Notes under the pieces: model-generated
The model's database searches: none
What the model saw: only the letters and a program-made list of their open reading frames with translations
What the model was told of the DNA's origin: nothing
Source: a bacterium
Lineage (GTDB): Bacteria; Electryoneota; RPQS01
Assembly: GCA_036504735.1 (NCBI GenBank)
Contig: DASXUQ010000009.1
Location: 1 to 64,000 of the forward strand
Length of the DNA: 64,000 nucleotides
Direction: 5' to 3'
Position numbers and translations under genes: made by a program
Shown here: in pieces, positions 65-4,070 of the stretch
Layout: each line of letters starts with the position of its first letter
Numbering within the stretch: the first letter of the stretch is position 1

Positions 65-355
65 TTAACAGCAACTCGACGAATTCCCCGCGCAGTCACA
101 GGTCGGTTCGCTTCCGGTGAGCCAACCCACCAGAACTCCGGCAGCACAGCCGACACCGGAGCGAACCTGAATCGCACCGGGTTCGCAGTTCTTCGAACAG
201 GCGCCGCACTCCATGCAGGCGCCACGGTCTACCAGCGCCGCGCGCTTCTCCGCCATTGCAAACACCGCATGCGGACAGACCAGCACACACAGGCCGCAGC
301 CGTTGCACTTTGCCGCATCAAATTCGAGAGTAATCACGTCTTCGAGGTATCTCAT
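65..355 (-). CDS. hgcB: HgcB, 2x[4Fe-4S] ferredoxin partner of HgcA (mercury methylation)
   Basis: ORF 65..394(-). Likely ATG at 355 (MRYLEDVITLEFD...), which makes an ATGA overlap with the hgcA stop. Two ferredoxin Cys clusters including CMECGAC, plus a C-terminal vicinal Cys pair (SSSCC) typical of HgcB. Confidence 0.8.
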   Translation of the reverse strand: MRYLEDVITLEFDAAKCNGCGLCVLVCPHAVFAMAEKRAALVDRGACMECGACSKNCEPGAIQVRSGVGCAAGVLVGWLTGSEPTCDCAGNSSSCC

Positions 356-1512
356 AGCACCGGCCCTCCCGAAAGAAACAGGCCCGTAACCCACAATCCC
401 AGTCCAAGGGCCGCCGCGCCGATCTGCAGCGGCAAGGCAAACCGCATCTCGCGCAGCACGCCGGAAAGGGAGGTAAACGTGGACGTGCCCGTGAAATTCA
501 TCACGGTAAAACTGCTGATGGTGGGCATCACCAACGCCCAGCAGGCCGTATGCAGCAGAGGATGGGCAGTCAGCGTGGTCGCCATCCCGGAGAGCATCAG
601 CACGGCAAACAGCAGCAGCCCGAGGATGGCACCCTTAAGCGAAAAGGCGCGCCCCGGCAACAGAGGCAGCAACAGTGGTCCCAAAATCGCTCCTCCTAAG
701 AAGGCGGAGAGCACCAACGCCGCGCTCTGAATCCCGGTGGTGCGCACCCGTTCGAGAGCATAACCGTGAGCATTCAGGCCGCTGAAGAGCAGCAGCGCCG
801 CAGCGGTCAGCAGCACATACTTTGCGCCCATCACCACTTCCACCGGAATCAGCACCGCGCGGTCTTTCAGCGCAAACCGCACCGCGCGCATGGCCGGCTC
901 GGCTTTGAGGCCTGCATCCAGAAACGCGGGAAGATCCTTCGCCCGTACCGGACCGTACACCACGCGGAATCCGCACTGATGCCGCACCGTGTGCGCAGCC
1001 ACGCCCGGCGCGCCGAGTTGCGGCAAGATGAGTTTGCGGTGCGAGACGATCCGGTCCAGTCCCGCAACCTGCACCCGCCGCACCAGTTCTTCCGTGCCGA
1101 AGGTTCCCTTGCCTGCCGCGCACCAGACATTAATGCCCTTGGTATCCAGCACAAGAACCCAGGCATTCCGCCCGGTCAGCGCCTTGCGCAGATGATCGAA
1201 ACTCAGCTTGTAATTTGCCGTCACCACCACCGGAGACTCGGCAGTGGGATTGCCCACCGCATACAGTCCCGGCAAAATGCTGTAATGCATGCGGCCAATC
1301 GCGCTGCGCGCCTTCAAAGTGCCGAGCCTGTCGCTGCACCTCAATTCGGTTCGCGCGCGGGGCACATCGCCCACCGCCGTCGATAGCACACCGTCACTCC
1401 ACGGAGCGGAAATTTGGCCCAAAGTACGGGGCTCCACCTTAGCCTGATTGCATGCACAGGGAACTCCCGGTGTGCAGCCTTCCGCCGGCTCCTTTTTACG
1501 AATCGTTACCAT
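352..1512 (-). CDS. hgcA: HgcA, corrinoid protein of the mercury methylation pair
   Basis: 386 aa. Cap-helix motif GINVWCAAGKGTF, the HgcA signature N(V/I)WCA(A/G)GK. N-terminal CFeSP-like corrinoid domain and a C-terminal multi-TM hydrophobic domain. SD AGGAAGGA lies directly upstream of ATG 1512. Confidence 0.85.
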   Translation of the reverse strand: MVTIRKKEPAEGCTPGVPCACNQAKVEPRTLGQISAPWSDGVLSTAVGDVPRARTELRCSDRLGTLKARSAIGRMHYSILPGLYAVGNPTAESPVVVTANYKLSFDHLRKALTGRNAWVLVLDTKGINVWCAAGKGTFGTEELVRRVQVAGLDRIVSHRKLILPQLGAPGVAAHTVRHQCGFRVVYGPVRAKDLPAFLDAGLKAEPAMRAVRFALKDRAVLIPVEVVMGAKYVLLTAAALLLFSGLNAHGYALERVRTTGIQSAALVLSAFLGGAILGPLLLPLLPGRAFSLKGAILGLLLFAVLMLSGMATTLTAHPLLHTACWALVMPTISSFTVMNFTGTSTFTSLSGVLREMRFALPLQIGAAALGLGLWVTGLFLSGGPVL

Positions 1513-1524
1513 GCGATCCTTCCT

Positions 1525-2226
1525 TTAGATCGTCGCCAGTAAATAGAATCCCACTCCTACCAGCAGCACTCCACCGCCGATGCGAATGACCGGCTCCACT
1601 CTCTGTGCCGTTTTGCTGAGTCTCCCAAGCCCAAAGCTAAGCCCGATCAGACCCGCCGTCAGCGGCAAACTGTAGCCAAGGGCAAAGACCGTTAAAGCCA
1701 TTGCGCCGAGAAGCAGCGTGCTCTTCAACACGACCGCGCCAATGGCCATAGGCAGCAGCGGATTGCAACCCACCGAGCAGGCGGTGGAAGCGCCACCCAG
1801 AACAAGCCCGTAGACCATTGCGCCGGCCACACCTTTCCCGCGCATGTTTGAGCTGAGATTCAGCGCAGGAATGCGAATCCGCACCAGCTTTAAGCTGACC
1901 AGACCGAACAGGACAATGGCAAGCCCTGCGGCAAACTGCCAGTAGCGCCCCAGCGAGGAACTACCCCAGTGACCGATCAGACCTGTCAGCGCACCGATCA
2001 CAGCCAGGGACAATGTGGTTCCCAGCATGAAGAACAGGCCCGCCATCCAAAGCTCACGCCGTCCGGTTTGAGAATCCCTTGATCCGGCATATCCCACCAC
2101 CGCACCGATCATCGGCAGCGCGCAGCAGGAACTCACCGCGCCCAGCATGCCGAGTAAGAACAGCGCCGGATAGAAGGCCAGACCGACCTGATCACCGGAC
2201 AGAATCTGCTGAATCCATTGCTGCAC
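1525..2226 (-). CDS. DsbD_2/CcdA-like integral membrane protein with vicinal Cys pair in TM1 (SSCCALP) and a CxxGCNP site
   Basis: The C-terminal 233 aa of ORF 1525..2514 is polytopic. DsbD-family-like Cys in two TM segments. Likely GTG start at 2226, 2 nt after the TAA of the upstream Cys-rich gene. The N-terminal 96 aa of the long ORF overlaps that gene in another frame and is probably not coding. Confidence 0.6.
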   Translation of the reverse strand: MQQWIQQILSGDQVGLAFYPALFLLGMLGAVSSCCALPMIGAVVGYAGSRDSQTGRRELWMAGLFFMLGTTLSLAVIGALTGLIGHWGSSSLGRYWQFAAGLAIVLFGLVSLKLVRIRIPALNLSSNMRGKGVAGAMVYGLVLGGASTACSVGCNPLLPMAIGAVVLKSTLLLGAMALTVFALGYSLPLTAGLIGLSFGLGRLSKTAQRVEPVIRIGGGVLLVGVGFYLLATI

Positions 2227-2228
2227 GG

Positions 2229-2510
2229 TTACTTCCCCGCGCTGGGGCAGCAGCCGCCCGAGCCGCTGCAGTCCTGTGCCGCGCCACACGCCGGAGCAGC
2301 AGACTTTGCCCAGAAGGAATACGCGCCAACTCCCACCGCGGCGAGCATAATGGTCACAAACAGTACCATCCGCAGGCGGGATCTCCGCTTCGGTGTGCTG
2401 CCACAGCCGCAGCCTGCCGCATTTTCCTGATCTGAGCCGCCGCAGCAGTTGGCCGATGATTCGGGTGTGTTGTCTGCCATGTGTTGTCTCCGGTAAGTCC
2501 GGCTGACCAT
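2229..2510 (-). CDS. small Cys-rich single-TM protein (CC, CGCG, C..C, CC clusters on both sides of the TM helix)
   Basis: 93 aa ORF, or 83 aa from ATG 2480 which has a GGAGA SD. One central hydrophobic helix (MVLFVTIMLAAVGVGAYSFWA). Cys clusters NCCGG, GCGCG, PACGAAQDCSGSGGCC. Stop TAA abuts the GTG of the DsbD-like gene. Confidence 0.5.
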   Translation of the reverse strand: MVSRTYRRQHMADNTPESSANCCGGSDQENAAGCGCGSTPKRRSRLRMVLFVTIMLAAVGVGAYSFWAKSAAPACGAAQDCSGSGGCCPSAGK

Positions 2511-2586
2511 GCAAGAGCCGGATAAATATGTGATTTATTTCTCAAAAACGGTGATGCGCAAATGGGGCAGCAACTCCTGCCTCGCC

Positions 2587-3687
2587 TTACGGTAAGTTCT
2601 GAATGGCTGCCTTGGCCTGTGCGGGTGAAGTCGGAAGAGAAAAATATTTGCGCTGCATCCACAGCGCCACATTGACCAGACCGATCAGCGCCGGAACTTC
2701 CACCAGCGGACCGATCACCGCGGCAAAGGCCGCGCCGGATTGCACACCGAAAACCGCAATCGCCACGGCTATCGCCAGTTCGAAATTGTTGGAAGCGGCG
2801 GTAAAGGCGAGTGTGGCCGTTTTGGAATAGTCGGCGCCGACCTTCTTACCCATCCAGAAAGAGACAAAGAACATCACCACAAAATAGATGAGCAGCGGAA
2901 CCGCAATCCGCAGTACATCCAAGGGCAGCGTCAAAATCTTGTCCCCCTTGAGCGAGAACATCACCACAATCGTAAACAGCAGCGCAACGAGTGTGATGGG
3001 GCTGATCTTCGGAATGAATGTCTGATGATACCACGCCTTGTCCTTGATACGGATCAGCACAAACCGGGTCAAAAATCCGGCAAGAAACGGAATGCCAAGG
3101 TAAATGAAGACGCTTTTGGCAATTTGCCCGATGGTAATGGGCACCGCCATGCCGCTCATGCCGAACAGCGGCGGCAGAAGGGTGATGAACACATAGGCGT
3201 ACAGCGAGTAGAACAGCACCTGAAAAATGGAATTGAAGGCCACCAGTCCCGCAGCGTATTCGGTATCGCCTTTGGCCAGTTCATTCCAAACAATCACCAT
3301 GGCAATGCAACGCGCCAGGCCGATCAGTATCAGGCCCACCATGTATTCGGGAAAATCGGGCAGAAAGAGAATCGCCAGAAAGAACATCAAAATCGGCCCG
3401 ATGACCCAGTTCTGCAGCAGAGATAAGGTCAGCACTTTCCAGTTACGGAACACACCGCCCAGTTCTTCATAGCGCACTTTGGCCAGCGGAGGGTACATCA
3501 TCAGAATCAGCCCGATGGCAATGGGAATCGAGGTCGTACCCACGCTGAACTGATCGAGAAACGGCACCACTCCGGGAACGGCATATCCCAGACCAACGCC
3601 CGCCGCCATCGCCGCAAAGATCCAGAGCGTTAAATAGCGATCCGTAAGGGAAAGCCCGCGGCTAACCTTGCGCACTCCATCGCTCAT
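2587..3687 (-). CDS. acr3: ACR3-family arsenite efflux transporter
   Basis: Start [24 protein letters not shown]..., about 10 TM. Typical ACR3/ArsB(ACR3) family sequence. ATG 3687 immediately follows the arsR stop. Confidence 0.85.
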
Positions 3688-4070
3688 GAGGCCTTCTCCA
3701 TTCCCGCGACCGTTGCCTTTTCCTGCGGCACGCAACAGCCTTCCAGCAGTCTGCGCCGTGACGCCAGTTTCCGGTTCAGGTCGCGCAAGGTCTCGCTATC
3801 CAACAGAAGCTGGGCGTTATCGAGAATGGCGGTCTGCGCCGCAGTCAGATGCTCGGCAATGCGATAGTACATCCACACCGCCTCGCGCCGGTCCATAACC
3901 AATCCCGCGTTCAGCAGATACCGGAGATGCCGGGAGGCCTTCGATTGCGTAATTCCCAGTACGCTTTCCAGTTCACAGACGCACAATTCTCTGTGCTGCC
4001 GGATCAGGGCCAGCATGTATAGCCGTGTGTCATCCGCCAGTGCCTTGAAGAGCGCCGCCGCGTTGCTCAT
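3684..4070 (-). CDS. arsR: ArsR/SmtB family metalloregulator (ELCVCE metal site)
   Basis: 128 aa. HTH motif plus ELCVCELE. About 75% identical over 95 aa to the paralog at 35704..36090. Confidence 0.85.

Follow-up and report, generated by a model that had tools for sequence, protein, structure and literature searches.

Mercury methylation has been described as needing hgcA and hgcB alone (bioRxiv 10.1101/2022.07.06.499078). ArsR-like regulators and the arsenic genes acr3, arsC and arsM are reported beside hgcAB in McDaniel et al. 2020 (PMC7438021), Gionfriddo et al. 2022 (bioRxiv 10.1101/2022.10.17.512643) and Peterson et al. 2025 (PMC11984097), and control of hgcAB by a regulator is described as well. 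Here, we analyzed a 64,000-nucleotide (nt) stretch of a bacterial contig (DASXUQ010000009.1, positions 1 to 64,000; "the window"), in which hgcAB is preceded by arsR, acr3 and two genes for thiol-rich membrane proteins, which we named cysS and dsbDl for this analysis. The company of ArsR and acr3 is already known for hgcAB; what is new is a putative hgcAB operon that comes with its own Cys-lined membrane module, based on a novel subfamily of CcdA. We are confident that the cassette is a real, conserved functional unit. The window has one copy of it, [ArsR-type repressor]-(acr3)-cysS-dsbDl-hgcA-hgcB. More tentatively, and at a little less than an even chance, we propose that cysS and dsbDl form an ArsR-repressed thiol-relay conduit feeding HgcAB. 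The features of the locus are as follows.

3684..4070, minus strand: arsR, an ArsR/SmtB metalloregulator of 128 amino acids (aa) (NF033788, 91.4 bits, cutoff 55; HTH_5 PF01022, 50.9 bits).
2587..3687, minus strand: acr3, an ACR3-family arsenite efflux permease of 366 aa (TIGR00832, 454.9 bits, cutoff 282.8).
2481..2586, minus strand: the 106-nt intergenic gap between acr3 and cysS (terminator scan, RNA folding).
2229..2480, minus strand: cysS, an 83-aa Cys-rich single-pass membrane protein (no family in Pfam or NCBIfam).
1525..2226, minus strand: dsbDl, a CcdA-fold protein of 233 aa with six transmembrane (TM) helices (PF02683 DsbD_TM, 38.7 bits, cutoff 27.1; PF13386 DsbD_2, 29.2 bits, cutoff 24.9).
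352..1512, minus strand: hgcA, the corrinoid protein of mercury methylation, 386 aa (NF040863, 441.8 bits, cutoff 275).
65..355, minus strand: hgcB, the 2x[4Fe-4S] ferredoxin of mercury methylation, 96 aa (NF040864, 118.8 bits, cutoff 99).
4099..4127, minus strand: a promoter-like site in front of arsR, overlapped by an operator-like inverted repeat (sequence reading, inverted-repeat search).
4242..4269, minus strand: a GC-rich hairpin 3' of the upstream SPFH/Band-7 gene (inverted-repeat search).

The Pfam and NCBIfam profile scores agree with the six gene identities given in the original prediction, which had been made from the window alone. The genes run head to tail on the minus strand across 65..4070. 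The arsR/acr3 and hgcA/hgcB junctions are ATGA overlaps, 2 nt separate cysS from dsbDl (which starts with GTG) and 12 nt separate dsbDl from hgcA; one long gap aside, the genes thus overlap or lie close together, and the operon-like layout proposed earlier is supported. A purine-rich, Shine-Dalgarno-like stretch lies 5' of each of the six starts, and hgcB ends 64 nt from the window edge. The long gap had been given as 76 nt, with the Cys-rich gene starting at 2510. Three homologs of cysS (83-84 aa) align from MAD/MSD, that is, from the ATG at 2480, which is therefore the most likely start, and the acr3-cysS gap is revised to 106 nt.

To compare neighborhoods, one genome per species was searched with an alignment of the 16 closest dsbDl sequences, giving 15 loci, and exact-protein look-ups gave nine more (L097-L105), for a total of 24 dsbDl-first loci. 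Neighboring genes were labeled by tblastn with the six window proteins or by hidden Markov models, and cysS partners were recognized from their place beside dsbDl and their Cys pattern. In 14 of the 24 loci, hgcA is no more than 3 kb away, and in 12 it directly follows dsbDl. Most loci carry a homologous or longer Cys-rich single-pass partner directly upstream of dsbDl. Spacing is kept as well: cysS and dsbDl are ~2 nt apart, and hgcA follows dsbDl after ~12 nt in L097-L099 and after 20-70 nt in most others (L002, L004, L005, L006, L007, L008 and L010). The metagenome-assembled genomes (MAGs) that hold these loci are labeled Calditrichaeota, Krumholzibacteriia, Eisenbacteria, Deltaproteobacteria, Zixibacteria and Myxococcota; the labels of relatives also include Ignavibacteria. 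The original prediction had called for such a comparison, and it shows the pair together with hgcAB in numerous genomes, some related to one another and some not. The nine look-up loci, with the identity of their dsbDl to that of the window, are:

L097, 79%: arsR-cysS-dsbDl-hgcA-hgcB.
L099, 79%: arsR-cysS-dsbDl-hgcA-hgcB.
L098, 77%: arsR-acr3-arsC-arsP-Trx3-Trx-CcdA-cysS-dsbDl-hgcA-hgcB-PEMT-PEMT.
L100, 67%: arsR-...-dsbDl-hgcAB.
L101, 55%: arsR-cysS-dsbDl-hgcA.
L102, 52%: hgcA-hgcB-MarR-methyltransferase-X-X-dsbDl.
L103, 52%: no hgcA.
L105, 45%: no hgcA.
L104, 43%: no hgcA.

The linkage can also be viewed from HgcA. A metagenome scan with an HgcA alignment was sampled at the best 80 of at least 596 hgcA loci. 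Among the 56 of these with at least 800 nt of upstream sequence, nine (~16%) have a dsbDl-family gene upstream on the same strand, a share biased towards relatives because the 80 best matches to the window HgcA were taken. Six of the nine are directly adjacent to hgcA, and three are interrupted by a CDF transporter, by a lipoprotein, or by a P1B-ATPase and acr3; three short contigs further show a partial dsbDl directly upstream of hgcA. In a neighbor-joining tree of 94 HgcA sequences, one clade is uniformly dsbDl-positive (the window, L097-L101, L045, L005, L008, L019, L002, L007, L004, L006, L016 and L017), whilst the other positives are scattered and large clades are negative. The identities of dsbDl and of HgcA to their window counterparts co-vary (Spearman 0.83, n=23).

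Gene content separates what is fixed in the cassette from what varies. Of 26 loci with both dsbDl and hgcA, 19 have an ArsR-family gene upstream, only eight have any ars structural gene (none lies within the flanks of the other 18), and acr3 is present in only four, the window aside. Some loci have a CDF transporter, a P1B-ATPase, acr3, arsM or arsP interleaved. Thus, the conserved unit is regulator-cysS-dsbDl-hgcA-hgcB and acr3 is a variable insert. This reverses the earlier picture of two genes inserted between an ars module and hgcAB: what was inserted is acr3. The two genes had also been put forward as accessories of hgcAB, and here the linkage is borne out but exclusivity is not, since the pair also occurs in ars clusters that lack hgcAB (L001, L003 and L105).

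The same comparisons bear on whether the adjacency has any functional meaning. The pair could be hitch-hiking on a mobile segment or belong to separate transcription units: the 106-nt gap before cysS could house an internal promoter, horizontal transfer of hgcAB is known (PMC7438021), and the module and hgcAB are each found without the other. Yet order, strand and near-zero spacing are kept across MAGs of different phylum labels, with dsbDl down to ~40% identity, and the divergence of dsbDl is correlated with that of HgcA. The family is moreover very rare, at 73 clusters, and still more than half of the sampled loci carry hgcA. We consider an adjacency without functional meaning very improbable.

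Several loci show features of their own. PEMT/ICMT-family membrane methyltransferases follow dsbDl in L003 (6297-6782, no hgcAB), and two of them follow hgcB in L098 (7194-8337). ArsM-like S-adenosylmethionine (SAM) methyltransferases precede the module in L008, L102 and L105, so that the module is repeatedly in the company of methyltransferases. In L001 (6186-11147), the genes after dsbDl encode ArsP_1, a Thioredoxin_3 protein, a lipoprotein resembling TlpA and a canonical CcdA; the acr3 of this locus is split between two open reading frames (ORFs; 6695-7321 and 7107-7658) and may be frameshifted or a pseudogene.

The window HgcA carries the marks of its family. It scores above the NF040863 cutoff, has the cap-helix NVWCAAGK (residues 128-135), which is invariant in the aligned homologs, and ends in a C-terminal membrane domain with hydrophobic segments at 226-376; hgcB follows directly downstream. 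Methylation activity is predicted from these features. The HgcB cysteines 17/20/23/27 and 47/50/53/57 form two CxxCxxCxxxC motifs, and Cys70 and a C-terminal C95-C96 are additional. The HgcA N-terminal extension (residues 1-25) contains Cys13, Cys19 and Cys21 (CTPGVPCAC). CC-containing N-terminal extensions are also seen in the HgcA proteins of L005, L008 and L010, and the homologs in L002, L004 and L007 look shorter. HgcA N-terminal CC/CU extensions and the HgcB C-terminal CC have both been published, and the extensions seen here match the published CC/CU motif (bioRxiv 10.1101/2022.07.06.499078). In L100 (5715-7148), hgcA and hgcB form one frame, with a single 477-aa product directly after dsbDl that looks like a natural HgcAB fusion; elsewhere, hgcA and hgcB occupy different frames and share an ATGA overlap. 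In L013 (8720-9313, a Myxococcota MAG), the hgcA after arsR-cysS-dsbDl is shortened to a 197-aa ORF whose similarity ends at about residue 123. This looks like decay of hgcA with the module retained.

The cysS product is small and Cys-rich at both ends. Its N-terminal 37 aa contain CC and CxC and end in KRRSRLR, a single TM helix spans residues 38-56, and the C-terminal 27 aa contain C, C and CC. The predicted topology thus places four Cys on each side of the membrane, with the N-terminus cytoplasmic and the tail periplasmic by the positive-inside rule. Neither Pfam nor NCBIfam gave a family match, and the homology search returned only three relatives; the sequence is short and of low complexity. 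At divergent loci, the partner is longer (180-257 aa): both Cys-rich ends are kept, and a further periplasmic domain is present. A Pfam search with four of the long partners gave only matches below threshold (Thioredoxin_3, 16.7 bits, in L038; Mur_ligase_C, 18.3 bits), and they lack a CxxC at the thioredoxin position.

dsbDl has exactly four Cys: C34 and C35 in TM1 (SSCCALP), and C150 and C154 in TM4 (ACSVGCNP; CxxxCNP). An alignment of 45 family members shows no variation at C35 and C154 and very little at C34 and C150. The protein is predicted from its basic loops to have six TM helices in an N-out/C-out topology, as in CcdA. An AlphaFold2 (AF2) model (pLDDT 64.7, pTM 0.57) was compared with the PDB using Foldseek and matched the nuclear magnetic resonance structure of CcdA (5VKV) at probability 1.0, with a TM-score of 0.54-0.56 and 27% identity; the remaining PDB fold matches had E-values of 0.2 or worse. 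PDB sequence searches with the dsbDl profile and with canonical CcdA as queries returned no matches. BLASTP pairs C35 with the Cys of the TM1 Pro-Cys motif in the canonical CcdA of L001. By its PF02683 score and its six-TM fold, dsbDl belongs to the CcdA/DsbD_TM family; it departs from that family in lacking the single Pro-Cys motif in each of TM1 and TM4.

This departure is characteristic of a small group. The homology search found 139 relatives, mostly of exactly 233 aa, and when 1.84 billion representatives were searched with the dsbDl profile, only 73 clusters (50% identity) reached E <= 1e-30. Most full-length relatives above ~100 bits have CC and/or CxxxC(C)NP in TM1/TM4; canonical xPC motifs occur in two of the 43 relatives in that range and are the rule below ~97 bits. 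The small number of clusters and the motif switch around 97-100 bits identify dsbDl, as judged from its sequence, as a rare, sharply bounded 'Cys-doubled' offshoot of CcdA. Two assignments to known families were considered and rejected. ArsG (NF040495) scores 41.2 bits against a cutoff of 200, and no Mer family (MerT, MerC, MerF or MerP) matched cysS or dsbDl at E <= 0.01 in Pfam or NCBIfam. In L104 (3523-9432), a dsbDl of 43% identity has a Fer4_11 protein on one side and NrfD plus multihaem cytochromes on the other, and ArsR, hgcAB and ars genes are all absent. A respiratory complex may also be served by the Cys-doubled subfamily.

The kinship to CcdA raises the possibility that dsbDl is a thiol-disulfide electron relay, through which cytoplasmic thioredoxin would reduce periplasmic Cys of cysS or of other envelope proteins. 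The CcdA fold, the DsbD_TM score above threshold and the retained equivalent of the CcdA TM1 active-site Cys are in keeping with this, as are the long partners with a periplasmic domain, one of which (L038) gives the sub-threshold Thioredoxin_3 hint. The Pro-Cys motifs that define CcdA have, on the other hand, been replaced by CC and GCNP, a change that marks the family boundary. No CxxC thioredoxin-fold partner is encoded from arsR to hgcB (the window ends 64 nt past hgcB), and the long partners lack a CxxC at the thioredoxin position. L001 and L098 each hold a separate canonical CcdA together with thioredoxins in the cluster, and thus dsbDl is not simply a substitute for CcdA. In addition, strict anaerobes would have little need of an envelope disulfide reductant, and the reduction of the HgcA corrinoid is already assigned to HgcB. 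We regard an electron relay as improbable. The original prediction had offered two roles for the pair, delivery or handling of Hg(II)-thiol substrates or supply of reducing equivalents; the second is the weaker, given the lost Pro-Cys signature and the missing CxxC partner between arsR and hgcB.

The promoter region of arsR contains a -35 element TTGCAT (4127..4122), a 17-nt spacer and a -10 element TATATT (4104..4099). A 9-nt inverted repeat (arms 4100-4108 and 4115-4123, 8/9 complementary) overlaps the spacer and the -10 element. The same arrangement is present 5' of arsR in L001 and L003. The motif AAYCG-N6-CGRKTAT, derived from the window, L001 and L003, has one site in the 64-kb window and recurs before arsR in L001, L003 and L098, of which L098 is the sole independent occurrence given how the motif was built. 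The conserved operator proposed earlier at 4098..4127 is therefore supported, with both an inverted repeat and a promoter-like site in place. A generic sigma-70 scan missed the site because the -35 element matches at only 3/6 positions. Further upstream, the hairpin at 4242..4269 (12-nt arms, 92% complementary) lies just after the stop of an 807-aa SPFH/Band-7 gene and probably sets the upstream limit of the arsR transcription unit. At 4165-4195, ~40-70 nt upstream of the arsR -35 element, two 12-nt arms of A and T only (AAAAATATAAAA / TTTTATATTTTT, 7 nt apart) form a perfect inverted repeat that could be a UP element or a binding site.

A terminator in the acr3-cysS gap would split the genes into independent transcripts, as the original prediction had pointed out. 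The scan found no terminator-like site at 2481..2586, the RNA fold of the gap was no more stable than shuffled sequences (z = -0.62), and the hairpin GGCAG/CUGCC has 5 bp and is not followed by a U-tract. The gap sequence is unconserved in L001 and L003, the two closest loci that share the acr3-cysS junction. A second promoter or operator in the gap, composed of a 6-bp repeat ATAAAT-N5-ATTTAT (2522-2538) and TTGCAT, was rejected, as it has no properly spaced -10 element and is unconserved in L001 and L003. The overlaps and short gaps, the lack of a terminator and the one operator-like repeat thus give the layout of a single ArsR-autoregulated operon, with co-transcription and ArsR control as the predicted consequences.

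The window ArsR has an alpha3 thiolate site, ELCVCE (Cys30, Cys32), and a C-terminal Cys112-Cys113, features that identify it as a probable soft-metal(loid) thiolate sensor. ELCVCE aligns with the ELCVCD stretch of CadC (1U2W), so that As(III) and other soft metals are all candidate effectors. Of the alpha3 motif CVCxxC of the E. coli R773 type, ELCVCE has two Cys, with Glu in place of the third, and PRK10141 scores 82.3 bits against a cutoff of 97. A second ArsR-family type, with a Cys-rich insert (e.g. LATCCVPSRCC..C..CVG) unlike the CVC type of the window, lies just upstream of cysS/cysL in L002, L004-L006, L009, L010, L013, L017, L037, L038, L044, L045, L079, L100 and L101. It is the commoner regulator before cysS-dsbDl-hgcAB and may correspond to the 'putative regulator' that PMC7438021 describes for 112 genomes, upstream of hgcAB.

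Vicinal Cys pairs in TM helices are a hallmark of the Hg(II) importers MerT, MerF and MerC, and a role in Hg(II) delivery has been proposed for the Cys pair that ends HgcB. Against this background, we propose the following mechanism. The dsbDl protein keeps the CcdA six-helix fold, whilst the change of the Pro-Cys motifs to Cys-Cys in TM1 and CxxxC-Asn-Pro in TM4 would create a site of four thiolates in mid-membrane. cysS would offer a four-Cys cluster on each membrane face. Together, they would make a conduit for a thiophilic metal(loid), with Hg(II) the leading candidate and As(III) possible. The ion would pass from the periplasmic thiols to the dsbDl membrane site, on to the cytoplasmic Cys cluster, and from there to the HgcB C-terminal Cys-Cys and the Cys-rich HgcA N-terminus. 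The scheme parallels that of MerP, MerT and MerA (or NmerA), except that the ion is methylated where Mer would reduce it. A single promoter upstream of arsR would drive all six genes, with ArsR repressing at the inverted repeat until a soft metal(loid) binds the CVC site. Uptake and hand-off of Hg(II) are favored because the linkage of the pair to hgcAB is tighter than that to any ars gene.

The composition of some loci fits a different substrate. L001 has an ars cluster of arsR, acr3, ArsP_1 (259 bits) and Thioredoxin_3, L003 has arsR, acr3, arsC and arsP, and L105 has arsR, arsC, arsM, a P-type ATPase and acr3, all without hgcAB. In these clusters, the pair may act as a transporter for As(III) or for methylated or aromatic trivalent arsenicals, ArsP- or ArsG-like and functionally part of ars islands. 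Its place beside hgcAB would then reflect the presence of hgcAB in ArsR-regulated arsenic clusters, or the pair would export the methylated product of a native arsenic-related role of HgcAB. The best NCBIfam match of dsbDl is the aminobenzylarsenical efflux permease ArsG, over the full length, the window ArsR has a CVC site and acr3 is co-linear. The ArsM-like and PEMT/ICMT-like methyltransferases near the module point in the same direction. In published work, hgcAB expression is tied to As(III)/As(V) via an ArsR-like regulator (bioRxiv 10.1101/2022.10.17.512643), and acr3, arsC and arsM occur beside hgcAB (PMC7438021, PMC11984097). The ArsG score of only 41 bits is, however, far under its cutoff of 200. 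The 18 of 26 dsbDl and hgcA loci without an ars structural gene in their flanks have the regulator only, and the pair is linked more tightly to hgcA than to any ars gene, with dsbDl co-varying with HgcA. We judge an arsenical transporter to be unlikely, albeit a serious contender.

The conduit for Hg(II) to HgcAB has its own difficulties. Ten of the 24 dsbDl-first loci, including L001, L104 and L105, have the module without hgcAB. L001, the closest relative of the window (dsbDl 81% identity), reads arsR-acr3-cysS-dsbDl-arsP-Trx, and L105 reads arsR-arsC-arsM-cysL-dsbDl-P-ATPase-acr3. From the side of HgcA, the ~16% of loci with the module come from a sample already skewed towards relatives, and ~84% of the sampled loci lack it. 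To our knowledge, the cultured model methylators lack it as well. The module is therefore not required for methylation. The confidence of the dsbDl model is only moderate (pLDDT 64.7). Finally, efflux would fit the same features, and regulated import of a toxic ion beside an acr3 efflux pump would be one reading among others.

In its strongest form, the Hg(II) reading would make cysS and dsbDl the first dedicated accessories of mercury methylation, a CcdA-derived Cys-relay importer that captures Hg(II) at the surface and passes it directly to HgcB/HgcA; we hold this form to be doubtful. If true, it would make hgcAB in these lineages part of a metal-inducible, Mer-like detoxification operon with methylation in place of reduction. 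It would further account for the route of Hg(II) to HgcAB, and would speak for mercury, or some other soft metal(loid), as a native and not an accidental substrate. Two long-standing questions are at stake: how Hg(II) enters methylators and reaches the cytoplasmic HgcAB, and what the native, selected role of hgcAB is, including its tie to ArsR and arsenic genes. A rare, thiol-rich membrane pair that is fixed beside hgcAB in one HgcA clade and recurs elsewhere provides concrete candidate genes, and with this pair mercury methylation may have its first candidate helpers. Metagenomic surveys also gain a marker in the module: its presence or absence at hgcA loci may go with differences in Hg uptake or regulation, which bears on the poor prediction of methylmercury production by hgcA abundance. 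Lastly, the change from Pro-Cys to Cys-Cys in a CcdA fold would exemplify an electron transporter re-purposed as a metal(loid) carrier.

Elsewhere in the window, several large secreted proteins carry Por_Secre_tail, the C-terminal sorting domain of type IX secretion (14680-17235, 48551-50563 and 45531-48449), and one of the Por_Secre_tail proteins contains six CHRD domains. Given where type IX secretion is found, these proteins suggest an organism of the Bacteroidota/FCB-group radiation, in line with the labels of the relatives (Calditrichaeota, Ignavibacteria, Krumholzibacteriia, Zixibacteria).

In the searchable literature, which leaves subscription-only titles outside, no paper names hgcA together with CcdA, 'cytochrome c biogenesis' or 'sulfite exporter', and nothing relevant was found for DsbD or hgcC. 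hgcA and DsbD meet in a single paper, by its title and abstract a selenoproteome review, where each term appears once. Term searches of PMC7438021, bioRxiv 10.1101/2022.10.17.512643, PMC11984097 and bioRxiv 10.1101/2022.07.06.499078 gave no mention of a DsbD/CcdA-like or Cys-rich membrane neighbor, and NCBIfam (June 2026) has no model for cysS or dsbDl. The claim that such genes are not a described part of the hgc system thus provisionally stands.

We finally compared the locus with the systems closest to it. The hgcAB neighborhoods in PMC7438021, bioRxiv 10.1101/2022.10.17.512643 and PMC11984097 share with the window a co-directional upstream ArsR-family regulator and a nearby acr3. They differ in that the window acr3 is itself part of the gene string, after arsR and before the module. 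The hgcAB regulator of ND132, ArsR2, differs at the alpha3 site, where the window ArsR has the canonical CVC (bioRxiv 10.1101/2022.10.17.512643). ArsG (NF040495, ~225 aa) aligns with the whole of dsbDl, yet the score (41 bits vs 200) places dsbDl outside that family. ArsP_1 permeases (Cys motif TPFCSCS) adjoin dsbDl in L001, L003 and L098 and belong to a different family that is not homologous to it.

The nearest structural relative is the CcdA/DsbD TM domain (PF02683; Thermus thermophilus CcdA, 5VKV). Like dsbDl, it has a six-TM fold built as a 3+3 inverted repeat, a similar length (224 vs 233 aa), Cys at the equivalent TM1 and TM4 positions and a predicted N-out/C-out topology. Unlike CcdA, dsbDl has Cys-Cys in TM1 and CxxxC-Asn-Pro in TM4, giving four membrane thiols. 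Its partner is a Cys-rich single-pass protein rather than a CxxC thioredoxin-fold protein, and its context is ArsR, hgcAB and metal transporters rather than cytochrome c maturation. The nearest relative in design is the textbook MerT/MerP system (with MerC and MerF), to which the likeness is one of logic only. There is no sequence kinship; dsbDl has a CcdA-like six-TM fold, the regulator is of the ArsR/SmtB rather than the MerR type, the enzyme methylates rather than reduces, and transport is a prediction on our side. What the two share is a vicinal Cys pair within a TM helix, Cys pairs on the periplasmic and cytoplasmic sides, and a module placed directly upstream of an Hg-transforming enzyme under a metal-responsive regulator.

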